From IMG/VR virus record IMGVR_UViG_3300042937_000216, positions 32,001 to 96,000 of that record: a stretch of 64,000 nt of DNA; one strand, given 5' to 3'. Origin of the DNA: a virus. Shown piece after piece: positions 11,740 to 32,365 of this stretch. Each line of letters begins with the position of its first letter. Positions within the stretch are counted from its first letter, which is position 1. The position numbers and the translations under genes are program-made. A model generated the notes under the pieces. The model was not told the origin of the DNA, ran no database searches, and saw nothing but the letters and a program-made list of their open reading frames with translations.

Positions 11740-12681
11740 ATGACTCTCAAACCTGTAAACGCACATCTTGACAGTGTTACCATCGGTGATGTTGAACTTC
11801 ACAAACTAATCACGACAGCAGAACTAGATAAAGATCTAAAGAATCTAGACAAGTTTGATGCTGAGTCTAACGCCAACAACTTTGCTGGCAATCCTTTCTT
11901 ATATCATTTTCAGTTTAAGAACTTATTAAACTGCCGTAGAAAAGATGGCAAGACCATATATGATATTTGGAACGATAAACCAGAGTGGGATAAGTTAATA
12001 GACAGCACACGTAAACGTAACCGAGGCGGGCGCACTGCCGCTGGCAATGTGTTTGAATGTTTCCGTATTAACCTAGGTAGTATTGTGATGTTCAAAGCAA
12101 CTACTGCCAAGTATCTTTATAAGAAGTACAATGCTACTAGTGTCTTAGATCCAACAGCAGGATGGGGCGGAAGACTATTAGGTGCTTGGAGTTTAGGCAT
12201 AGACTATACAGGCATTGACACTAACGTGGAAATGAAACCTGCGTATGAGAATATGATCACATTCTTAGATGAGTATACAGGATTTAAGAATAAGAATTTC
12301 AAAGTTGAACGTAACGGACAGCGCCAAATGATATGGGATAGCTGTTTAGCAGTAGACTTTAGTAAGTTGGACTACGACTTTGTATTGACTAGTCCGCCAT
12401 ACGTTAATTTAGAACTGTATGAACACATGACTCCTTGGGAAAAGGATGAAGACTTTTATACTAACTTCTTTATTCCCTTGTGGGCAAAATGTTGTAAGCA
12501 TATTAAACAGGGCGGCAACGTTGCGTTTAACATTAGTCCTAAGATGTATGAAGATGCGCTCAAGCATGGACTAACACCTTGTGATGAGGAAGAAGACCTA
12601 CTACAACAAATGGGTCAGAAGAAAGAGCTGTTGACCACAGGCAAAAAGAAACACGATAAGATTTATATTTGGCATTGTTAA
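11740..12681 (+). CDS. DNA amino-methyltransferase (N4-C/N6-A type)
   Basis: VLDPTAGWGG (motif I) and FVLTSPPY (motif IV). Confidence 0.8.
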   Translation: MTLKPVNAHLDSVTIGDVELHKLITTAELDKDLKNLDKFDAESNANNFAGNPFLYHFQFKNLLNCRRKDGKTIYDIWNDKPEWDKLIDSTRKRNRGGRTAAGNVFECFRINLGSIVMFKATTAKYLYKKYNATSVLDPTAGWGGRLLGAWSLGIDYTGIDTNVEMKPAYENMITFLDEYTGFKNKNFKVERNGQRQMIWDSCLAVDFSKLDYDFVLTSPPYVNLELYEHMTPWEKDEDFYTNFFIPLWAKCCKHIKQGGNVAFNISPKMYEDALKHGLTPCDEEEDLLQQMGQKKELLTTGKKKHDKIYIWHC

Positions 12682-12689
12682 AATAATAG

Positions 12690-12718
12690 TTGACAATGAC
12701 ACAAAAAGGCCATATAAT
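12690..12718 (+). promoter_or_regulatory. sigma70 promoter P1 of tRNA region
   Basis: TTGACA-17-TATAAT perfect consensus. Confidence 0.85.
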
Positions 12719-12761
12719 ATACATATATTTTAAGTAAGACATAAATAAATTAACAAACAGG

Positions 12762-12790
12762 TTGACAGGCTAATAAATAGACTGTATAAT
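12762..12790 (+). promoter_or_regulatory. sigma70 promoter P2 of tRNA region (ATAAATA in spacer)
   Basis: TTGACA-17-TATAAT perfect consensus. Confidence 0.85.
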
Positions 12791-12833
12791 AGTTTTTATA
12801 GTAAGAAATTAATTAAAGGAATGCGAAAGCAAA

Positions 12834-12965
12834 ATGTTTAACCAGCTACATCAATTTAAAATATCGAAACAAGTGTGCGCACTTGCCACGATGTCTTATT
12901 GGTCAGCGATTGAGACATTAGGCAATGATCGCACACCGAATAGTATCTATGGGGATCTTAGTTAG
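12834..12965 (+). CDS. Putative attenuator leader peptide, 43 aa (MFNQLHQFKISKQVCALATMSYWSAIETLGNDRTPNSIYGDLS)
   Basis: Between P2 and a terminator; AAGGA upstream with a TGC-GAAA-GCA hairpin in the spacer; contains all 20 amino acids. Confidence 0.65.
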   Translation: MFNQLHQFKISKQVCALATMSYWSAIETLGNDRTPNSIYGDLS

Positions 12966-12999
12966 AGTTTATATATAATATAAATGAATTTTAATTAAG

Positions 13000-13035
13000 A
13001 ACCCTAAGATCGAAAGACTTAGGGTTTTTTGTTTT
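13000..13035 (+). terminator. Intrinsic terminator / attenuator preceding tRNA array
   Basis: AACCCTAAG-ATCGAAAGA-CTTAGGGTT followed by TTTTGTTTT. Confidence 0.85.
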
Positions 13036-13036
13036 A

Positions 13037-13241
13037 TGTGTCTCGGAAACGAGGTCCAGGCAAGGCACATTAAAGATAGTATGTTAAACGGGCGGACAAG
13101 TGGATGGCATGTTCTTATGTGAACAGAAAATACTTGTTATAATAAAGTACATTAATTGGCAACTAGGTCCCACGCAATGTGGATTATGTCAGAGGCGAGT
13201 AATTAGTGTGCTTTATTATACGCATTCATATGAGTGCGTTA
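13037..13241 (+). ncRNA. Candidate structured RNA(s)
   Basis: CTCG-GAAA-CGAG hairpin; ~19-bp stem 13139-13157/13201-13219 with G-U pairs; hairpin 13220-13239. Confidence 0.45.
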
Positions 13242-13246
13242 ACAGT

Positions 13247-13329
13247 TTGTAGATAGTCCTGTTGGGCCAGGAGCCTAGCCATGCTAGGTCAAGATCGCAA
13301 CTTGTTGGGTTCGATTCCCAGTCTACAAT
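13247..13329 (+). ncRNA. Atypical tRNA-like RNA (long variable arm, abnormal anticodon loop, no CCA)
   Basis: TTGTAGA/TCTACAA acceptor, TCCTG/CAGGA D arm, CCTAGC-CAT-GCTAGG arm, CAAG/CTTG variable arm, TGGG-TTCGATT-CCCA T arm. Confidence 0.6.
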
Positions 13330-13383
13330 TTAACACGGCTCCTATCTATTGCCTACAGGGATAGCTTAGGAGTTATTTTATAA

Positions 13384-13462
13384 CTCAGTGTCGTATAGCC
13401 AGGCCTATTATGCGTGCTTTGGGAGCATGAGATCGTTGGTTCGAATCCAACCACTGAGACCA
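13384..13462 (+). tRNA. tRNA-Pro(TGG)
   Basis: Cloverleaf, loop TT-TGG-GA, CCA end. Confidence 0.9.
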
Positions 13463-13469
13463 AGTTTAT

Positions 13470-13554
13470 GGAGGTGTAGGAAAATTGGTAACCCCAGCGG
13501 ACTGTAAATCCGCCGCCCCTGGCATTGTTGGTTCAAGTCCAACCGCCTCCACCA
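13470..13554 (+). tRNA. tRNA-Tyr(GTA)
   Basis: Cloverleaf with variable arm, CT-GTA-AA, CCA. Confidence 0.92.
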
Positions 13555-13560
13555 TATAAC

Positions 13561-13636
13561 GGAATGATAGCTCAATTGGTAGAGCAAGATGCTTTTAACG
13601 TCGAGGTTTAGGGTTCAAGTCCCTATCGTTCCACCA
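13561..13636 (+). tRNA. tRNA-Lys(TTT)
   Basis: Cloverleaf, CT-TTT-AA, CCA. Confidence 0.9.
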
Positions 13637-13641
13637 GTAAT

Positions 13642-13719
13642 GGTCTGTTAGAATAGTTGGCCTACTTCGCCTGCCTGTCACGTAGGAGATCACGGGTTCG
13701 AATCCCGTACAGACCGCCA
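13642..13719 (+). tRNA. tRNA-Asp(GTC)
   Basis: Cloverleaf, CT-GTC-AC, GCCA. Confidence 0.9.
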
Positions 13720-13727
13720 AAAAGATG

Positions 13728-13756
13728 TTGACAACTAACAATATAGAATATATAAT
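13728..13756 (+). promoter_or_regulatory. Internal sigma70 promoter in tRNA array
   Basis: TTGACA-17-TATAAT. Confidence 0.8.
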
Positions 13757-13771
13757 AGTTGTATAGTTAAT

Positions 13772-13846
13772 AGCGGGGTGGGGAAGTGGCAACCCGTCGG
13801 GCTCATAACCCGAAGATCGGCAGTTCGAATCTGTCCTCCGCAACCA
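13772..13846 (+). tRNA. Initiator tRNA-fMet(CAT)
   Basis: CAT anticodon, three G-C pairs at base of anticodon stem, 1:72 mismatch. Confidence 0.9.
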
Positions 13847-13851
13847 GTAAT

Positions 13852-13927
13852 GCCGGATTAGCTCAGTTGGTAGAGCAGCGCACTTGTAATGCGAAGGTCG
13901 TCAGTTCGATTCCGACATCCGGCACCA
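13852..13927 (+). tRNA. tRNA-Thr(TGT)
   Basis: Cloverleaf, CT-TGT-AA, CCA. Confidence 0.92.
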
Positions 13928-13933
13928 GTTTAG

Positions 13934-14009
13934 GCTCCCATCGTCTAGAGGCCTAGGACACCCGCCTTTCACGCAGGTAACACGAGTTCGAATCTCGTTG
14001 GGAGTACCA
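13934..14009 (+). tRNA. tRNA-Glu(TTC)
   Basis: Cloverleaf, CT-TTC-AC, CCA. Confidence 0.9.
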
Positions 14010-14014
14010 AACAT

Positions 14015-14099
14015 GCCTCTGTGGTGGAATTGGTATACACGCTGGTCTTAGAAGCCAGTGCCGAAAGGCTTGAGAGTTCGAGTCTCTCCGGGGGCACCA
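14015..14099 (+). tRNA. tRNA-Leu(TAG)
   Basis: Cloverleaf with variable arm, CT-TAG-AA, CCA. Confidence 0.92.
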
Positions 14100-14102
14100 A
14101 AT

Positions 14103-14176
14103 GCGGGATTAGTATAATGGTATTATGACAGCCTTCCAAGCTGATGACGAGGGTTCGATTCCCTTATCCCGCTCCA
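14103..14176 (+). tRNA. tRNA-Gly(TCC)
   Basis: Cloverleaf, CT-TCC-AA, TCCA. Confidence 0.92.
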
Positions 14177-14179
14177 AAC

Positions 14180-14387
14180 ACTAGCTTTACACTTTGCGCT
14201 TTATCGAAAGTGGGTTATTGCCAATACCATAACGGCAGGGTACACACGATGGTCTAGACCATACCACAAGTCCCATTGCCGGGAGCCTTGAAAGTATCGT
14301 GGGTGTTTTACTGTTTTTAACCACAAAGCAAACAGGCGGACAGGGTAACTACTCAATCTAGGGCCAGGTGGTGCTGGTAGCTAGTCC
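14180..14387 (+). ncRNA. Candidate ~205-nt structured RNA between tRNA-Gly and tRNA-Ala
   Basis: ACTAGCT(14180-86)/AGCTAGT(14379-85) closing stem with several internal hairpins; no ORF of 60 aa or more. Confidence 0.45.
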
Positions 14388-14393
14388 TTACAC

Positions 14394-14469
14394 GGGGGTG
14401 TAGCTCAGTTGGGAGAGCGCATGCTTTGCAAGCATGATGTCGCAAGTTCGATCCTTGTCACCTCCACCA
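14394..14469 (+). tRNA. tRNA-Ala(TGC)
   Basis: Cloverleaf, G3-U70, TT-TGC-AA, CCA. Confidence 0.93.
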
Positions 14470-14476
14470 TACAATA

Positions 14477-14551
14477 GGACGGTTAGCTCAGCGGTAGAGC
14501 AGGGCCCTTACAAGGCCAAGGTCAAAAGTTCAATCCTTTTACTGTCCACCA
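14477..14551 (+). tRNA. tRNA-Val(TAC)
   Basis: Cloverleaf, CT-TAC-AA, CCA. Confidence 0.9.
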
Positions 14552-14558
14552 AGTTTAT

Positions 14559-14633
14559 TCCGAAGTAGCGTAGCGGTAGCGCAGAAGACTGTTAATCTTT
14601 TGGTCGGTGGTTCGATCCCACCCTTCGGAGCCA
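14559..14633 (+). tRNA. tRNA-Asn(GTT)
   Basis: Cloverleaf, CT-GTT-AA, GCCA. Confidence 0.92.
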
Positions 14634-14641
14634 TTTTAAAT

Positions 14642-14716
14642 AGTCTGTTAGCTCAGCGGTAGAGCAGGGTGTTGATAACGCCAAGGTCAGTGGTTCAATC
14701 CCACTACGGACTACCA
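14642..14716 (+). tRNA. tRNA-Ile(GAT)
   Basis: Cloverleaf, TT-GAT-AA, CCA. Confidence 0.9.
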
Positions 14717-14750
14717 ATTAAGTTGTTCTTTTCAATCAAAGGTGAATACT

Positions 14751-15221
14751 ATGAAAAAACTAGACATAAACCAAGTGCGTGACTTTATTCAAGCACAAAG
14801 TCTAGAAACCAAAGTCTACATTGGTGGTGACAGTCGACGTTTCCGTAAGAACGGACAATGGCATGCTGAATATACCTTGGCTATTGTAGTACACATTGAT
14901 GGGAAACATGGCTGTAAGATCTTTGGTGAAAGTAGTACTGAAGTGGACTACGATCAAAAACGTAGTCGCCCAAGTATGCGCCTAATGAACGAAGTCTACA
15001 AAATTAGTGAACTGTACTTAAAGCTACACGAAGTATTAGAAGACCGTGAAGTTGCTGTACATTTGGACATTAACCCAAACGAACTACATGGCTCAAGCTG
15101 TGTAGTACAACAGGCTATTGGTTATATCCGCGGAACATGTAACGTTATTCCAATGGTTAAACCAAACGCCTGGGCAGCTAGTTATGCGGCTGATCGTTTA
15201 AAAGAAATTATAGCAGCATAA
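14751..15221 (+). CDS. RNase H-like YkuK (DUF458) family protein
   Basis: YIGGDS, RLMNEV, VHLDIN, KPNAWAASYAAD motifs. Confidence 0.75.
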   Translation: MKKLDINQVRDFIQAQSLETKVYIGGDSRRFRKNGQWHAEYTLAIVVHIDGKHGCKIFGESSTEVDYDQKRSRPSMRLMNEVYKISELYLKLHEVLEDREVAVHLDINPNELHGSSCVVQQAIGYIRGTCNVIPMVKPNAWAASYAADRLKEIIAA

Positions 15222-15228
15222 GTTTAAT

Positions 15229-15303
15229 TGGGGTATGGTGTAATTGGCAACACAACACACTTTGACTGTGTCGTTTCAAGTTCGAGTCTTGATACCCCTG
15301 CCA
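15229..15303 (+). tRNA. tRNA-Gln(TTG)
   Basis: Cloverleaf, CT-TTG-AC, GCCA. Confidence 0.9.
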
Positions 15304-15305
15304 GT

Positions 15306-15440
15306 TTTGTTAGTGTGTGTACAGTAACCGTTATGTGACTATAGATTATACTTAATCCTTCTATAGTGTACCCGATGTCTGTAGCAACATATCTTAGGAT
15401 ATGTCTGTTGGTGAATTAAGTGTAGTCAACGACTAACAAA
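15306..15440 (+). ncRNA. Candidate pseudoknotted RNA
   Basis: TTTGTTAGT/ACTAACAAA closing stem; hairpin 15338-15367 whose loop region is complementary to 15415-15427. Confidence 0.45.
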
Positions 15441-15556
15441 TTTAAACAGTATCGGCCACGCCTCTTAACAATGCGCAACATGGTAAGCTGGATTTACAGC
15501 TAAAACTTGAGGACGCTCAAGGCTTCGGTCTTCCGGTGGGATAACCACCAATCTAT

Positions 15557-15632
15557 TCCGGTGTAGTGTTAACGGCTAGCACGATGGTCTCCAAAACCAC
15601 AAGACGCGGTTCGAATCCGTGCACCGGAGCCA
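15557..15632 (+). tRNA. tRNA-Trp(CCA)
   Basis: Cloverleaf, CT-CCA-AA, GCCA. Confidence 0.9.
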
Positions 15633-15707
15633 AACATAATTTGTACAGTATAATGTACAAAATACCCCAAAATTGTACAGGATACTGTACACTTTAATAT
15701 ATAAAAT

Positions 15708-15784
15708 GCAACGGTACCAGAGTGGCCTAATGGCAAGGACTGCAAATCCTTTGTACGTCGGTTCAAATCCGACCCGTTGCTCCA
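15708..15784 (+). tRNA. tRNA-Cys(GCA)
   Basis: Cloverleaf, CT-GCA-AA, TCCA. Confidence 0.92.
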
Positions 15785-15789
15785 ATTAT

Positions 15790-15866
15790 AGAGATGTAGC
15801 ATAGTGGCCTAATGCACTTGCTTCATACGCAAGCTACCGTAGGTTCAAATCCTACCATCTCTACCA
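15790..15866 (+). tRNA. Elongator tRNA-Met(CAT)
   Basis: Cloverleaf, TT-CAT-AC, paired 1:72, CCA. Confidence 0.8.
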
Positions 15867-15867
15867 C

Positions 15868-15946
15868 GCCCCCATAGCTCAGTCTGGACTAGAGCATAAC
15901 GCTACGAACGTTAGTGTCGGAGGTTCGAATCCTTCTGGGGGCTCCA
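15868..15946 (+). tRNA. tRNA-Arg(ACG)
   Basis: Cloverleaf, CT-ACG-AA, CCA. Confidence 0.9.
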
Positions 15947-15955
15947 AATAAAATG

Positions 15956-16019
15956 TTACTGAGCAGTAATATTTGCCGTCAAACCCGGCTAAATCAGTTC
16001 AAATATTACTGAGCAGTAA
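15956..16019. repeat. Two identical palindromes TTACTG-AG-CAGTAA exactly 50 bp apart
   Basis: 15956-15969 and 16006-16019. Confidence 0.8.
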
Positions 16020-16028
16020 GATTAAAAT

Positions 16029-16103
16029 GCGGATATAGCGTAGCAGGAAACGCACGTGCTTGCCAAGCATGAGTCACGAGTTCGAATCTCGTTATCCGCT
16101 CCA
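16029..16103 (+). tRNA. tRNA-Gly(GCC)
   Basis: Cloverleaf, TT-GCC-AA, TCCA. Confidence 0.9.
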
Positions 16104-16105
16104 AT

Positions 16106-16180
16106 GGTGTCTATAGTGTAGCGGCAACACTAAGGATTGTGATTCCTTCATCACGGGTTCGAACCCCGTTAGACACCCCA
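16106..16180 (+). tRNA. tRNA-His(GTG)
   Basis: Encoded G-1:C73, TT-GTG-AT, CCA. Confidence 0.92.
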
Positions 16181-16181
16181 C

Positions 16182-16210
16182 TTGACAAGTCAACCAAATG
16201 ACTGTATAAT
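16182..16210 (+). promoter_or_regulatory. sigma70 promoter (leaderless geometry)
   Basis: TTGACA-17-TATAAT, ATG 6 nt downstream. Confidence 0.8.
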
Positions 16211-16216
16211 ACGCTT

Positions 16217-16459
16217 ATGAATGATGAAGAACAATTAGCATGGGACATATTAAGCACGCCAAATAATGCGGACTTTAAGAATTATCGCAGACAGCATCGT
16301 ATGACATGGTTAACCAAAGACCGTAAGATATTGTTGATCAGAGACATGGAAACAGCACACATCATAAGTTGCGTTAATATGTTAGAAGCATTGGGGCAAG
16401 AAGAAACCTTGGCCTATAATGGCCTAATAGATGAACTAAGAAAGCGAGGACAAGAATAA
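16217..16459 (+). CDS. Hypothetical protein
   Basis: 80 aa, W.T.D....LI.DMET.HI motif common in small phage proteins. Confidence 0.65.
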   Translation: MNDEEQLAWDILSTPNNADFKNYRRQHRMTWLTKDRKILLIRDMETAHIISCVNMLEALGQEETLAYNGLIDELRKRGQE

Positions 16460-16842
16460 TGGACTTTACCATTGACTCAGAGTACTTAACAGATGTAACA
16501 ATTCGCAAAGAATGGAACACTTATACACAGAATGGTCGCGTACCAACTAATGAAGAACTTATTTTAATTATTCAAGGTAAAGGTGTGTGTTCAACTACAC
16601 ACTCAGAAGACCATCCGGAGTTTGCTAAGTTGCGTGAGCAGTTAGGCGAGTTGGGTTATATTGAGATTCAACGCAGTTGGTGGAATGGAGATAGAGTTCT
16701 AAAGCCGTTCAAACTTAACGGCAGAAAGTTCAAAGAGGGTGATCAGTTTAGTTGTGGTAGTGCAATGGGTAATCATCTTATTGTACGTGCCAAACACCCG
16801 GAATATTATAAGGATGAATACGATGATGAAACCATGGATTGA
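16459..16842 (+). CDS. Hypothetical protein
   Basis: 127 aa, GAGGA RBS, TAATG coupling. Confidence 0.65.
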   Translation: MDFTIDSEYLTDVTIRKEWNTYTQNGRVPTNEELILIIQGKGVCSTTHSEDHPEFAKLREQLGELGYIEIQRSWWNGDRVLKPFKLNGRKFKEGDQFSCGSAMGNHLIVRAKHPEYYKDEYDDETMD

Positions 16843-17242
16843 AAATATTAGTCTTGATGATGTGCGTAAAGGATATCACTACGACCCAGGTTTCAACAGT
16901 ATGCTAATACAGATTGTAGATCCTGGTACAGAATTCCCAACACCTAAGTATGACTTCCACACTGTACGCCAGTTCTACTTCTTAGATGTAGAAGAAAGCG
17001 ATAGCGAAAAGTTTTACTATGCGGCAGCCATTACCAATGAAGATGCTAAAGGTATTGCTAACGCATTAAAAGAAGCATGGGAACAGAGTATGAACGTAGT
17101 GGTACACTGCCACATGGGTGTAGCACGTAGTGGAGCAGTAGCAGAAGTAGGACAAATGATTGGGTTTAGAGATACAGAGAAATTCCGTGTTCCAAACCTA
17201 ATGGTCAAACACAAGCTAATGCACTATTTAGATTTAGTTTAG
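16823..17242 (+). CDS. Cys-based (PTP/dual-specificity) phosphatase
   Basis: VHCHMGVARS = HCxxGxxRS active-site loop. Confidence 0.8.
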   Translation: MMKPWIENISLDDVRKGYHYDPGFNSMLIQIVDPGTEFPTPKYDFHTVRQFYFLDVEESDSEKFYYAAAITNEDAKGIANALKEAWEQSMNVVVHCHMGVARSGAVAEVGQMIGFRDTEKFRVPNLMVKHKLMHYLDLV

Positions 17243-17245
17243 AAT

Positions 17246-17321
17246 GCCACCTTAGCTCATCTGGTAGAGCACATGTTTGAAGCACATGGTGTGCCTGGTT
17301 CAAGTCCAGGAGGTGGCACCA
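17246..17321 (+). tRNA. tRNA-Phe(GAA)
   Basis: Cloverleaf, TT-GAA-GC, CCA. Confidence 0.9.
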
Positions 17322-17325
17322 AGTT

Positions 17326-17497
17326 TGGAAGAAAGCCGGTACATTATGTATTCGAGGTTAGGAGAGACCGGCAAACCGTCCATATAAAGACCAGACCTCA
17401 ATCTCGTTAAGAGACAATTCTGGTTCCGCTGACGCGAAAAGAGGATGGGCTGCGCTCACGGGGTTTGTTAGGTTCCTGACACATGAATACCTAACAC
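17326..17497 (+). ncRNA. Candidate structured RNA(s) with pseudoknot
   Basis: GCCGGT/ACCGGC stem whose loop GAGGT can pair with ACCTC; ACCAGA/TCTGGT; TGTTAGGT/ACCTAACA. Confidence 0.45.
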
Positions 17498-17503
17498 TAA
17501 CAT

Positions 17504-17591
17504 GGAAGTTACTGAGGTCGGCTCCTCACACAGTCTTGAAAACTGTAGTTACCAGGAATGGTAAATCGTTCGATGCGATTAACTTCCGCCA
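17504..17591 (+). tRNA. tRNA-Ser(TGA), probable non-canonical 8/4 fold
   Basis: GGAAGTTA/TAACTTCC 8-bp acceptor, ATCG/CGAT 4-bp T stem, long variable arm, G73-CCA. Confidence 0.8.
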
Positions 17592-17596
17592 AATAC

Positions 17597-17625
17597 TTGA
17601 CACTGTCGGCAAACGGTGTTATAAT
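17597..17625 (+). promoter_or_regulatory. Internal sigma70 promoter
   Basis: TTGACA-17-TATAAT. Confidence 0.8.
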
Positions 17626-17645
17626 AGTTGTATAGTAAGAAATTA

Positions 17646-17735
17646 GGAGAGTTGGCCGAGTGGTCGAAGGCAGCGGCTTGCTAAGCCGTCCTCCCAGTAA
17701 TGGGAGCATAGGTTCGAATCCTATACTCTCCGCCA
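17646..17735 (+). tRNA. tRNA-Ser(GCT)
   Basis: Cloverleaf, long variable arm, TT-GCT-AA, GCCA. Confidence 0.92.
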
Positions 17736-17745
17736 AGATTAAGTA

Positions 17746-17821
17746 GGGCCGATAACTCACTCGGCGAGAGTACTGTGCTCATAACGCAGAAGGCAGGGAT
17801 CATAACCCTGGCGGCCCACCA
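17746..17821 (+). tRNA. tRNA(CAT), probably Ile2 (lysidine type)
   Basis: Third CAT tRNA, GGGCC acceptor, CT-CAT-AA loop, atypical T loop ATCATAA. Confidence 0.7.
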
Positions 17822-17822
17822 A

Positions 17823-17907
17823 GCGACTGTGGAGAAACTGGTATACTCATCAGACTTAAAATCTGACGCCGCAGGGCATGGCGGTTCGACCCCGCCCAGT
17901 CGCACCA
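17823..17907 (+). tRNA. tRNA-Leu(TAA)
   Basis: Cloverleaf, variable arm, CT-TAA-AA, CCA. Confidence 0.92.
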
Positions 17908-17913
17908 GACACT

Positions 17914-17988
17914 CCGGTGTTAGTTAAATGGATATAACAGGGGATTTCTACTCCCTAGTTGGGGGTTCGATTCCCTCACGCCGGACCA
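17914..17988 (+). tRNA. tRNA-Arg(TCT)
   Basis: Cloverleaf, TT-TCT-AC, CCA. Confidence 0.88.
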
Positions 17989-18006
17989 TAACAACAAGGA
18001 AACAGT

Positions 18007-18264
18007 ATGTCAATAATACAAAATTATAATGTAGAAGAACAACTAACCGCCGCAGAAAATCGAGCAATTGAAAAACGTGAAGCAGACGAAATTATCAATA
18101 ATGCTATGAAAGAATTCTTAGCCAGCGGCGGAAAGATACAACAGATTGAGCGGGGAGTTAGCCAGCAAGCAGACGGCGCATCTTATGCAGCCTGGGGAGC
18201 AGCACGCAAAGCAGGTCGCCCAACAACAGATACGACAGCTTCAATAGCAGACCTTAACAAATAA
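18007..18264 (+). CDS. SutA-like RNA polymerase-binding protein
   Basis: AMKEFLASGGKIQQIE resembles the recalled Pseudomonas SutA core AMEEFLSRGGKVQEIE; AAGGA RBS. Confidence 0.65.
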   Translation: MSIIQNYNVEEQLTAAENRAIEKREADEIINNAMKEFLASGGKIQQIERGVSQQADGASYAAWGAARKAGRPTTDTTASIADLNK

Positions 18265-18282
18265 TATAAAAGGTAATACTAT

Positions 18283-18531
18283 ATGAAATTTACCCTAGCA
18301 GAAATTATTGAATTAGCTAAAGAAGTAGAACTTAGCGATGAAATCGATTGGGACGATTTGCCCTTAGATAAAGATCGCATCTACCAAATCATTGGTAGTC
18401 AAACCTATGAGCTATACCAAGAGTATGCTCTGTCAGAAAACGGTGAAGCTATACTCTTAGCCACCATCACAAAGTTGTTGATCGAAAACTTCGTATTGAA
18501 TTTACGTGTGCGAGGCAACAACGTCTTATAA
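18283..18531 (+). CDS. Hypothetical protein
   Basis: 82 aa, AAGGT RBS. Confidence 0.65.
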   Translation: MKFTLAEIIELAKEVELSDEIDWDDLPLDKDRIYQIIGSQTYELYQEYALSENGEAILLATITKLLIENFVLNLRVRGNNVL

Positions 18532-18541
18532 ATACTCAACA

Positions 18542-19618
18542 ATGATACTGCTTTTCAATGTTAAAATCACCAGTCAAGGTCTGAGTTATTATCACCGTAG
18601 CGAATGGCTACCTGTGTATGATCGCATGGACATCTTTAAATACTGCCTAGCCAGTTATTCAGCACTACTCCCCTTACTAAGTAAATGTTTATTTTACATT
18701 CAAGTTGAACCAGAATTTGCTCACAGACAACAAGAATTACAAGCATGGATCACAGAGTTATTTCCTGCTGACCGTTTAGAACTACATTGGCATCGCATTA
18801 ATCACACTCGTGATTGGCGCACACTGGGCGAACAGTTTGCTGATGATGACCTAATATGGTTTGCTGGTAATGATGATCATATCTTTATAGATCACAACCT
18901 AGATGTAGTGGCCGCTGGCATTCGACTATTAAATGAAGACCCCGACCCACTAAGCGTAATTTACTACAGCCATTGGCCAGAACAGATGCGCCTAAGCATA
19001 CACCATAATGGCGAACTTACACCAGATGGTAATTACATTAAGCACGTTTGGCGCACGTTTGATGCTATACGAATTTTAAAAGGTCAACGCTTTAAACAGT
19101 ATTGGCAGGATAATGAGTACGGCGACGAGATTGTATTCCGCACAGATACCCTATGGCACAAGGGCTATGAGTTAACAGGCCCTGTCTACAGCCCAACACG
19201 TGAGCTAGTTCGTCACTACGATGGCTACAGTCATGTTAGTCCACATATTATCAACCTAGCACCTCCTATTGTTATTCCTCCGGGCTTCTTTACTCGAGAC
19301 ATGCGAGTGCGTATTGGCTACGAGGATAGAGACAACAGTGCTACTAATCTTTATGCCGCGGCACAATTCCTATATGCGGCACAGCCACAGGGTACTGACT
19401 ATCGTTGGACCATCGAAGACATTCCGTTATTTTGGAAGAAATACATAGCTGATGTTGATGTTAATCTAGATCAACATATCTACAGTCTACAACAAGCACG
19501 TGATGCGGCCTACTTGGCCAGTACACGTATTCCAATGACCTGTTACAGCACAACCTTTGATCATACAGGTGCCGCACCTGACAGTTGGTTTAATAATCAT
19601 TTGAGAACACGTGGATAA
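18542..19618 (+). CDS. Hypothetical protein, possible GT-A-fold enzyme
   Basis: WFAGNDDHIFID DxD-like motif; TATAAATA at 18527. Confidence 0.5.
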   Translation: MILLFNVKITSQGLSYYHRSEWLPVYDRMDIFKYCLASYSALLPLLSKCLFYIQVEPEFAHRQQELQAWITELFPADRLELHWHRINHTRDWRTLGEQFADDDLIWFAGNDDHIFIDHNLDVVAAGIRLLNEDPDPLSVIYYSHWPEQMRLSIHHNGELTPDGNYIKHVWRTFDAIRILKGQRFKQYWQDNEYGDEIVFRTDTLWHKGYELTGPVYSPTRELVRHYDGYSHVSPHIINLAPPIVIPPGFFTRDMRVRIGYEDRDNSATNLYAAAQFLYAAQPQGTDYRWTIEDIPLFWKKYIADVDVNLDQHIYSLQQARDAAYLASTRIPMTCYSTTFDHTGAAPDSWFNNHLRTRG

Positions 19619-30937: not shown

Positions 30938-32365
30938 ATGACCATACAAAAGATTAAATCAATAATGTATTATGTAGTGATAGCACTAGCAGTATCAGTT
31001 GCAGGATTAAAGCAAGCGCATGCCGACAGCACTAGCGACATTGTTAACGCACTAGTTATGAAGGGTGTACTTACAGAAGAAGAAGGCGCACTTATAACCA
31101 AAGGACACAGCGGAGAAAAAGTAGCTGCTAAAAAAGAAAAAGACACTACTGTACATGCGGCTAGTAAAATGAACATTCGTGGCTATTTACAAGTGCGCAA
31201 TACTACTATGCTTAGTGGTGACGAAGGAGTCAACCTTTGGTCAGATCGATCTGTAGGTAATAAAAACTCTCTTGCTGATCAAGACAAAAACTTTCTTATC
31301 CGTCGAGCACGTGTGATCATTTCTGGTTCAGCTGGTGATCGTTTAGATTACTATATTCAACCCGACTTTGCTAGTACAGCAGGTACCACAGGTAACGTTG
31401 CTCAACTACGTGATGCTTACGGTGACGTGAATCTAACCAAAGACAAAGTACATCGTGTACGTGTAGGCCAAAGTAAAGTACCATATGGCTTTGAGAATTT
31501 ACAATCTTCACAAAATCGGTTAGCACTTGATCGTGCTGACGCATTTAATAGTGCGGTGCGTGATGAACGTGATTTAGGTGCGTTCTACTACTACACACCT
31601 GATAATATACAAAAGCTGTTTAAAGAAATACAAGATGCAGGATTAAAACATTCAGGAAACTACGGTATGTTTGGCATTGGTGTGTATAACGGTCAAGGTG
31701 CTAACCAACAAGATCGTAATGATAATTACCACACAGTAGCACGTCTTACTTACCCATGGAAAACAGAAAGCGGCCAAATATACGAAGCTGGTGTACAAGG
31801 TTATACAGGCAAGTATGTAAGAACAGGTAGTGCGTATAGAAGAAATATGGGCAACAACGTTTACGCAACTAAAACACCAACATTAGAACCAGGCAACACC
31901 ACTGGATTCAAAGACGAACGTATGGGTGTAAGTTTTATGATGTACCCACAACCGTTTGGTCTACAAGGTGAGTGGAACTGGGGCAAAACTCCTGGCTTAG
32001 ATACTACTGCTAGTACTGATGGTATTATTAAAGAAACTAACTTGAACGGTGGCTACATTCAAACTATGTATAAAATTGATCACTTCAAAGTTGGCGATAC
32101 TGATGGTACACTAATTCCATTTGTTAGATGGCAATACTTTGATGGTGCGTCAAAAGCAGAAACTAACTCACCGATGAATAAAGTTAACGACTGGGAAGCA
32201 GGTGCTGAATGGCAAATTGCGCCAGAAGTTGAACTTGTGGCTTACTATCATCATATGAATCGTAGCAATTTAGTAACTGGAGCATCGTCTACTACAATAG
32301 TAAAACAAGACTATGCTAACTTTAAAGCAGACGCTTTACGTGTTCAACTACAGTATAACTTTTAG
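30938..32365 (+). CDS. Phosphate-selective porin OprO/OprP family
   Basis: Signal peptide, L..KGVLT.EE, RRARV, RDAY, GQSKVPYGFE..QSS, RDLG, terminal QYNF. Confidence 0.82.
   Translation: MTIQKIKSIMYYVVIALAVSVAGLKQAHADSTSDIVNALVMKGVLTEEEGALITKGHSGEKVAAKKEKDTTVHAASKMNIRGYLQVRNTTMLSGDEGVNLWSDRSVGNKNSLADQDKNFLIRRARVIISGSAGDRLDYYIQPDFASTAGTTGNVAQLRDAYGDVNLTKDKVHRVRVGQSKVPYGFENLQSSQNRLALDRADAFNSAVRDERDLGAFYYYTPDNIQKLFKEIQDAGLKHSGNYGMFGIGVYNGQGANQQDRNDNYHTVARLTYPWKTESGQIYEAGVQGYTGKYVRTGSAYRRNMGNNVYATKTPTLEPGNTTGFKDERMGVSFMMYPQPFGLQGEWNWGKTPGLDTTASTDGIIKETNLNGGYIQTMYKIDHFKVGDTDGTLIPFVRWQYFDGASKAETNSPMNKVNDWEAGAEWQIAPEVELVAYYHHMNRSNLVTGASSTTIVKQDYANFKADALRVQLQYNF

Follow-up and report, generated by a model that had tools for sequence, protein, structure and literature searches.

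Transcription attenuation through a leader peptide is familiar from the amino acid operons of enterobacteria, among them trp, his, leu and phe and the multivalent thr and ilvGMEDA. Here, we describe a locus of similar build that stands before the transfer RNA (tRNA) genes of a phage. It lies in a stretch of 64,000 nucleotides (nt), positions 32,001 to 96,000 of the IMG/VR virus record IMGVR_UViG_3300042937_000216, which we call the window, and it consists of a 43-codon open reading frame (ORF; the leader), an intrinsic terminator and, further on, an array of 26 tRNA genes (Table 1). We think that this locus is probably a ribosome-mediated, leader-peptide attenuator of the trp type. Its anatomy, its conservation, the selection for an open frame without protein constraint, the helix that competes with the terminator and the matching of leaders to tRNA blocks were all computed, and the way in which the switch would operate is proposed on that basis.

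The resemblance to the amino acid operons lies in the promoter, the short ORF and a stop codon in or near the 5′ arm of an antiterminator that shares bases with the terminator, in a spacing of about 70 nt between the stop codon and the point where the T-run ends, and in leader codons that correspond to what the regulated genes supply. There are also differences, as the regulated genes are tRNA genes rather than genes for biosynthetic enzymes and are carried by a phage, the leader of the window has no runs of one codon, and a region-1 partner (an anti-antiterminator) is at best weakly indicated. The classical look is found in a related leucine/serine/cysteine module of locus L143 and of the phage sequence LR756504.1. 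A second point of comparison is offered by the T-box riboswitches, leader RNAs that bind uncharged tRNA and thereby stabilise an antiterminator. There, too, the state of a tRNA decides between terminator and antiterminator; however, T-box RNA pairs directly with the tRNA and needs no ORF, whereas here the reading frame is under selection. A T-box covariance model gave no match at the gathering score in positions 12000-19000 of the window (E-values up to 1).

What phages carry tRNA genes for, and when they make use of them, has long been debated. The two main ideas are codon compensation and escape from host defences that cleave tRNAs (PMC10264068, PMC11555353). For long accessory arrays, the nearest case in print is the cryptic 26-gene tRNA operon of Anabaena sp. 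PCC 7120, which is induced under translational stress (PMC8421152, PMC10272220). Like the array in the window, as we read it, it is switched on when translation is impaired; unlike it, it is under promoter control, through direct repeats and a repressor, and it is cellular rather than phage-borne (PMC8421152). The terms "leader peptide", "attenuat-" and "terminator" occur 0 times in either paper, and our full-text literature searches found no account of a leader-peptide attenuator before tRNA genes.

Linkage to tRNA genes and the competing helix

Pattern and tblastn searches found the leader ORF at 24 viral and 18 metagenome loci (numbered with an L below). Together with the window, these make up 31 distinct DNA variants, from lake phage contigs; further loci of the family were added by a DNA pattern search, and 10 short representatives at a greater distance came from a profile search of 1.84 billion proteins. 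Among GenBank phages, tblastn found no match to the leader at E-values up to 0.1, blastn found a single match (62 nt over the terminator, in LR756504.1), and the methyltransferase that neighbours the leader in the window has matches only in distant staphylococcal phages.

The association with tRNA genes is regular. Same-strand tRNA genes begin 313-1143 nt past the start of the ORF in 26 of the 26 variants with at least 671 nt of downstream sequence, the remaining five of the 31 having at most 273 nt downstream and thus falling outside the count, and tRNA genes likewise follow the module in L077 and L079. In twelve variants, tRNA-Met and tRNA-Arg genes also precede the module by about 400-1200 nt, which means that it does not always come first in the tRNA region. 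The gene upstream of the module differs between relatives, with no conserved upstream synteny, and on the 3′ side, at least four distinct terminator hairpin sequences stand behind the same ORF end.

For some relatives, the layout also says something about transcription. In the nine variants of the L042 type, a 42-codon gene rich in lysine, glutamate and leucine (3216-3344 of L042) lies between the terminator and the structured RNA that follows it, about 10 nt past the T-run, with its own ribosome-binding site and no promoter. Since this gene has no promoter and since no + strand promoter of at least 9/12 is predicted in the window between the terminator and 13728, transcription must pass the terminator. 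Contigs of relatives from four RNA libraries of two studies cover the module. One of them, 224 nt long, begins at 12798, although this is weak evidence, as contigs cannot show starts, and in one sample such contigs span the module, the terminator position, the structured RNA and a tRNA, with DNA possibly present. The upstream gene has no cover in these libraries, which is uninformative because the relatives differ there and contigs show neither level nor ends.

A sequence-only reading of this locus had taken the full complementarity of 12954-12961 to 13004-13011, stacked on an inner helix, as the antiterminator, and had supposed that an alternative register (12956-12972 with 12984-13000) leaves the terminator free. 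The 8-base-pair (bp) complementarity, the inner helix and the alternative register are all present in the window. As an antiterminator, however, the 8-bp pairing had to be given up, since across 21 sequences, only 70.8% of its cells are paired, no better than in shuffles, and since terminator hairpins are swapped under an unchanged ORF end. What is conserved is instead the helix of the other register, which extends over 13002-13010, through a G-run (12950-12954 with 13002-13006) and then 12945-12948 with 13007-13010, and so takes in the 5′ arm of the terminator rather than leaving the terminator free. Across 21 sequences, 92.8% of the cells of this helix are paired, with compensatory changes at two pairs (12 cells), and 0 of 500 shuffles match it in paired fraction, in double-change cells or in covariation score. 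When folded as it would be before the 3′ arm of the terminator has been made, the RNA of each of the 26 distinct 3′ regions has 4-9 of the 7-10 bases of the terminator 5′ arm paired to the ORF end. This pairing is independent of terminator type and of C-terminal type, and the G-run of the helix is maintained across variants that read it in three different frames. In some variants, the folds of the terminator form also show a weak pairing between 12926-12937 and 12948-12957, a candidate for the anti-antiterminator pairing.

The 5′ arm of the helix includes the stop codon, so a terminating ribosome would prevent the helix from forming, and this position is also the reason for the direction that we propose for the switch, from stalling to read-through. 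The strong promoters would drive a leader RNA of about 240 nt, and its 43-codon ORF would be translated into a peptide without a function of its own. A ribosome running smoothly to the stop codon would cover the 5′ arm, the terminator would form and transcription would end at 13035. If the ribosome were delayed at an earlier codon by the scarcity of a charged tRNA, the helix could form first and hold the 5′ arm of the terminator, and the polymerase would then continue through the structured RNA to the tRNA genes. With every amino acid represented in the ORF, and with it 25 of the 26 classes that the window's tRNAs decode, a shortage of almost any tRNA could raise read-through, and the phage's own tRNAs would shut the switch down again, as a feedback. 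Starvation and host anticodon nucleases may be the causes of such a shortage.

If this is true, a sensor of decoding speed makes the tRNA supply of the phage conditional and self-limiting, attenuation as known from amino acid operons is extended to tRNA genes, and the leader is the first that samples not one amino acid but the entire code. At about 350 nt and with consensus promoters, the module lends itself to direct tests in a cell-free system or in laboratory bacteria, and it could serve as a compact reporter of tRNA shortage.

Leader composition and the tRNA genes behind it

A recount of the window's leader agrees with the sequence-only reading, which had described a 43-codon ORF that encodes all 20 amino acids, uses 33 distinct codons and covers 25 of the 26 classes decoded by the tRNAs of the window, arginine AGR alone having no codon. 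That reading had also proposed computing the chance of such completeness, and for a random 43-residue peptide of phage composition, it comes to P = 0.0137 for all 20 kinds. The leader is alone in having 20 kinds among the 113 six-frame ORFs of 38-50 amino acids, and it is also the sole ORF of up to 60 amino acids in the window to do so. The chance of covering at least 25 of the 26 classes is 0.001 for random codons and 0.15 with the peptide fixed; thus, the signal lies in the amino acid content, and synonymous codon choice adds little. No codon occurs in runs of the kind found in classical attenuators, each amino acid having 1-5 codons.

The relatives retain this composition without being strict about it. 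The family has 37 distinct peptides of 39-50 amino acids, of which 28 have all 20 kinds and 9 lack only cysteine, so that the minimum is 19, compared with a mean of 16.5-17.6 kinds in random peptides of the family lengths. The sequence-only reading had proposed to test whether completeness persists in related leaders; it does to the extent of 19-20 kinds in all 37, but not strictly, given the nine without cysteine and the L068 leader, in which the internal methionine is absent. When residues are shuffled within columns, 15.6 ± 2.1 complete sequences result and 0 of 5000 shuffles reach 28, a figure inflated by relatedness. When residues equal to the consensus are held and the rest redrawn, the 8 most divergent representatives keep the 19 kinds other than cysteine with P values of 0.21-0.71 each, and the product of those eight values, about 2e-4, holds only if the lineages are independent. 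In peptides without the usual histidine, this residue is relocated to three other positions. In terms of decoding classes, 30 variants cover 26 (six variants), 25 (fourteen), 24 (nine) or 23 (one). The idea that loss of cysteine from the leader tracks loss of tRNA-Cys from the array was rejected on account of L077, whose leader lacks cysteine and whose array has tRNA-Cys.

Viral contigs were also scanned for two terminator types, which gave at least 151 hits outside the main family. Of these, 39 with one tRNA or with too little downstream sequence were dropped, as were 13 controls with less than 400 nt upstream, and main-family loci with ids below L109 were left out of the tests. All figures given for these modules hold among the matches listed. 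A short ORF (15-60 amino acids) ending 10-60 nt upstream is found at 28 of the 29 hits with at least two same-strand tRNAs and at 19 of the 70 without them (Fisher P 8e-11), the 28 corresponding to 19 distinct peptides. Adding the terminator 5′ arm to the fold gains -8.72 kcal/mol where tRNAs follow (n = 20) and -1.71 kcal/mol where they do not (n = 67; Mann-Whitney P 5.9e-8), and at the tRNA-linked terminators, the 5′ arm has its pairing partner 30-55 nt upstream, where the short ORF ends.

Where the terminator type recurs in other phages, the short ORFs that precede tRNA blocks are unrelated to the window's leader and match their own block in composition. Fifteen leaders compared with their own tRNA blocks show an excess of 35.6 residues, which 0 of 100000 permutations reach, and cover 88.9% of the kinds in the block (permutation P 0.0003); with one leader per family (n = 11), the permutation P values are 0.00017 for residues and 8e-5 for kinds covered. 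The diversity of the two also goes together, as across 13 modules, blocks with more kinds tend to have leaders with more kinds (Spearman 0.87, P 1e-4) and of greater length (rho 0.76).

Several of these modules show the matching at the level of single residues or codons. For instance, in LR756504.1, a 636-kb uncultured phage (2915-3060 of L107), a 29-codon ORF with 7 leucine, 5 serine and 2 cysteine codons ends 23 nt before the terminator, behind which lies a cluster of 8 tRNA genes (4 Leu, 3 Ser and 1 Cys), the sole tRNAs in 40 kb, and the leader codons match 6 of the 8 anticodons. L143 (3072-3215) carries a leucine/serine/cysteine module like that of LR756504.1, with codon runs. In another phage group (L137, L144, L145 and L119), the leader module stands mid-way within the tRNA region, where the ten tRNA genes behind the terminator represent ten amino acid kinds, the very ones that make up an uninterrupted run of 14 leader residues, and the serine and glycine codons of the leader are those read by the block's own Ser and Gly tRNAs. 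At the other extreme, the 41-codon leader of L150 (13483-13605, - strand of the locus) contains all 20 kinds (P 0.009) and covers 24 of 26 classes. It stops 29 nt short of a terminator with the sequence found in the window, its last codons pair with the bases directly adjoining that terminator, and an array of 26 tRNA genes, which serves all 20 amino acids, follows. This leader aligns with the window's leader neither in BLASTP (no alignment) nor in hhalign (probability 0.3%). With somewhat less assurance than for the locus itself, we incline to the broader view that large phages regulate tRNA genes through codon-matched leader attenuators, each block standing behind an ORF composed of the amino acids that it decodes, and that the leader of a complete array acts as a general decoding sensor, which would turn the replacement tRNAs on when any host tRNA is in short supply through starvation or anticodon nucleases, and off when the phage tRNAs have made good the shortage.

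The alternative that survives best keeps the attenuator and removes its tuning. The same anatomy, conserved helix and open frame would be expected if translation were coupled to termination merely to report the general capacity for translation and coupling, such as ribosome availability or early as opposed to late infection, with amino acid completeness as a by-product. The absence of repeated codons, a codon choice that is unremarkable given the peptide (P 0.15) and the dispensability of cysteine in 9 of 37 leaders would all suit it. It does not account for the match of related modules' leaders to their own tRNA blocks (P about 1e-4), for the scaling of leader diversity with block diversity (rho 0.87) or for two unrelated leaders before complete arrays that both have 20 kinds (P 0.014 and 0.009), and we consider it unlikely.

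Selection on the leader frame

The leader is kept open without being kept as a protein. Across 32 coding variants, with at least 101 nucleotide changes, 6.07 stop codons would be expected and 0 are seen (P = 0.002), each of five separate indels is exactly one codon long, the start codon and the ribosome-binding site are retained in all variants, and the other two frames contain stops in 29 of 32 and 32 of 32 variants. The ratio of nonsynonymous to synonymous polymorphism (pN/pS) is nonetheless 0.90 for residues 2-19, 0.56 for residues 20-35 and 1.19 from residue 36 to the end, compared with 0.19 (n = 7) for a small ORF downstream and 0.35 (n = 10) for one upstream in the same loci; the downstream value belongs to the 42-codon gene of the L042 type, which is under purifying selection. 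Purifying selection of the kind expected for a functional small protein is thus not what the leader shows. Its C-terminal ends, of three unrelated sequences and lengths (41-49 codons), have been exchanged between variants. The open frame and a pN/pS near 1 suggest that the ORF is translated and that its peptide sequence is not conserved as such. A regulatory leader ORF would be expected to stay open in just this way, free of constraint on the protein, and the pattern argues against both a functional small protein and a purely non-coding RNA.

One could still suppose that the ORF is simply a phage gene for a small protein, with a promoter of its own and a terminator that leaks, that the product acts in trans, for example on tRNA metabolism or against a host defence, and that the tRNAs are made by constitutive read-through and from internal promoters. 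A conserved ORF with a ribosome-binding site, the presence of internal promoters in the array, a six-residue motif that is invariant in 37 of 37 family peptides and an AlphaFold2 model with a single long helix over residues 2-31 (mean predicted local distance difference test score, pLDDT, 68.8) would fit such a gene. Its pN/pS of 0.56-1.19, next to 0.19-0.35 in neighbouring small ORFs, would not, and neither would the conservation of its conserved positions at synonymous sites as well, the swapping of C-terminal modules that differ in sequence and frame while the RNA pairing is kept, the lack of a Pfam or PHROGs family for the peptide, or the unrelated peptides found at the same place in other phages. 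We regard this explanation as improbable. Least probable of all, in our view, is a non-coding RNA with a regulatory or structural role, be it an abundant small RNA or one that acts in cis to prevent termination of a long structured transcript, in which the ORF is incidental. The conservation of the core at the nucleotide level, third codon positions included, the location of variable codons in hairpin loops, the two hairpins at the 3′ side and the RNA-library contigs over the module would suit it. Against it, no stop arises among at least 101 changes (P 0.002), the indels come in whole codons, no variant has lost the start codon or the ribosome-binding site, the 5′ part has a weak consensus fold (-9.97 kcal/mol) in which few pairs covary, and no Rfam family matches.

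The attenuator first proposed from the sequence, with a leader mirroring the tRNA set, therefore stands in its linkage to tRNA genes, open frame, competing helix and block matching, and falls short in its 8-bp antiterminator and strict completeness. Several points nevertheless weigh against the attenuator. Translation, termination and switching are all steps that we infer. The attenuator model does not explain why the core of the ORF shows no variation at synonymous sites either, the third positions of its conserved codons being conserved as well. Because there are perfect internal promoters at 13728, 16182 and 17597, strict dependence is limited to the first block, that is, to the structured RNA and tRNA-Pro, tRNA-Tyr, tRNA-Lys and tRNA-Asp, and the leader is not enriched in these four amino acids. 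In the absence of codon runs, the sensitivity to any single tRNA may be low, and cysteine is absent from 9 of 37 leaders, including that of L077, which stands ahead of an array with tRNA-Cys.

Other points concern the helix. Two of five covariation measures are not above shuffles (204/500 and 496/500), and the part formed by the G-run and its C-run partner never varies and hence shows no covariation. A random genomic flank equals the observed energy in 0.2-12% of 1000 trials per variant (3.5% for the window), so each single case is modest. With the 3′ arm included, 17 of 26 variants have their energy minimum in the terminator form and 9 in the competing form (in the window, -27.8 and -25.0 kcal/mol, respectively); therefore, the helix could act only kinetically, as the antiterminator of the trp leader likewise does. 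In the variants of 48-49 codons, moreover, the partner bases of the terminator arm are separated from the stop codon downstream by about 20-30 nt, which places them beyond the footprint of a terminating ribosome. As for the comparison with other phages, its thresholds and family grouping were chosen by the analyst, and the matching has misses, namely L179 (4 of 32 residues and 3 of 5 kinds), L224 (6 of 32 residues), L226 (no short ORF) and L201 (8 of 11 kinds).

Layout of the locus and minor observations

The window is part of a 122-kb viral contig with a CheckV completeness of 35%, which makes it a fragment of a very large phage, and every one of its long ORFs is on the + strand. The features of the module are collected in Table 1. 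They include the two perfect sigma70 promoters and the intrinsic terminator that the sequence-only reading had pointed out; both promoters, like the three internal ones it named, are exact 12/12 matches, and the terminator is a hairpin (13000-13026) with a T-run that reaches -11.0 kcal/mol when folded alone. A simple scan of the window for terminators did not list it. Between the leader ORF and the terminator, there is a long hairpin rich in A and T.

Table 1. Features of the putative attenuator module and the RNA genes that follow it, in window coordinates
Feature	Position	Strand	Description
Upstream promoter P1	12690-12718	+	12/12 sigma70 consensus, 17-nt spacer
Promoter P2, directly before the leader	12762-12790	+	12/12 sigma70 consensus; conserved in the family
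5′ untranslated region (UTR)	12797-12833	+	Purine-rich ribosome-binding site 12815-12820; GNRA-type hairpin 12823-12832
Leader ORF	12834-12965	+	43 codons, 20 amino acids, 25/26 decoding classes
Hairpin within the leader ORF	12871-12886	+	Loop formed by hypervariable codons 15-16
Putative antiterminator helix, 5′ arm	12945-12972	+	Last 7 codons, stop codon 12963-12965 and 7 nt further
Putative antiterminator helix, 3′ arm	12984-13010	+	Final 11 nt are the terminator 5′ arm
Intrinsic terminator	13000-13035	+	9 + 2 bp stem, GNRA-type loop, T-run
Structured RNA, first read-through product	13036-13240	+	Conserved; no Rfam match
Array of 26 tRNA genes	13384-17988	+	All 20 amino acids represented

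P1 occurs only in some relatives (the window, L040 and L064), whereas the -35 and -10 hexamers of P2 are kept across the 31 variants, with a diverged spacer. The 5′ UTR is almost invariant in sequence among family members. Its ribosome-binding site lies 13 nt from the start codon of the leader, and the small conserved hairpin between them may shorten that distance. The hairpin within the ORF corresponds to consensus helix columns 89-92/97-100, where a G-C to G-U change and one change on both sides are found, and a hypervariable codon of its loop shows five different residues among the variants; as a matter of speculation, it could be a pause site.

Behind the terminator, a non-coding stretch of about 350 nt leads to the tRNA array. 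In the structured RNA at its start, a helix of about 14 bp closes a variable insert, with compensatory changes in L051, L052 and L059. An Rfam search of 12000-19000 (E-values up to 1) brought only tRNA to the gathering score, other matches being weak and sub-threshold. A tRNA-like element with a T-arm lies at 13247-13329, where ARAGORN makes no call, and it is missing at the same place in L028, in which tRNA-Pro comes directly.

On the other side of the module, the methyltransferase-like gene (11740-12681) is conserved in loci L003-L032 with 49-89% identity, and the sequence after it differs in almost every relative, which marks this region as a hot spot of gene turnover.

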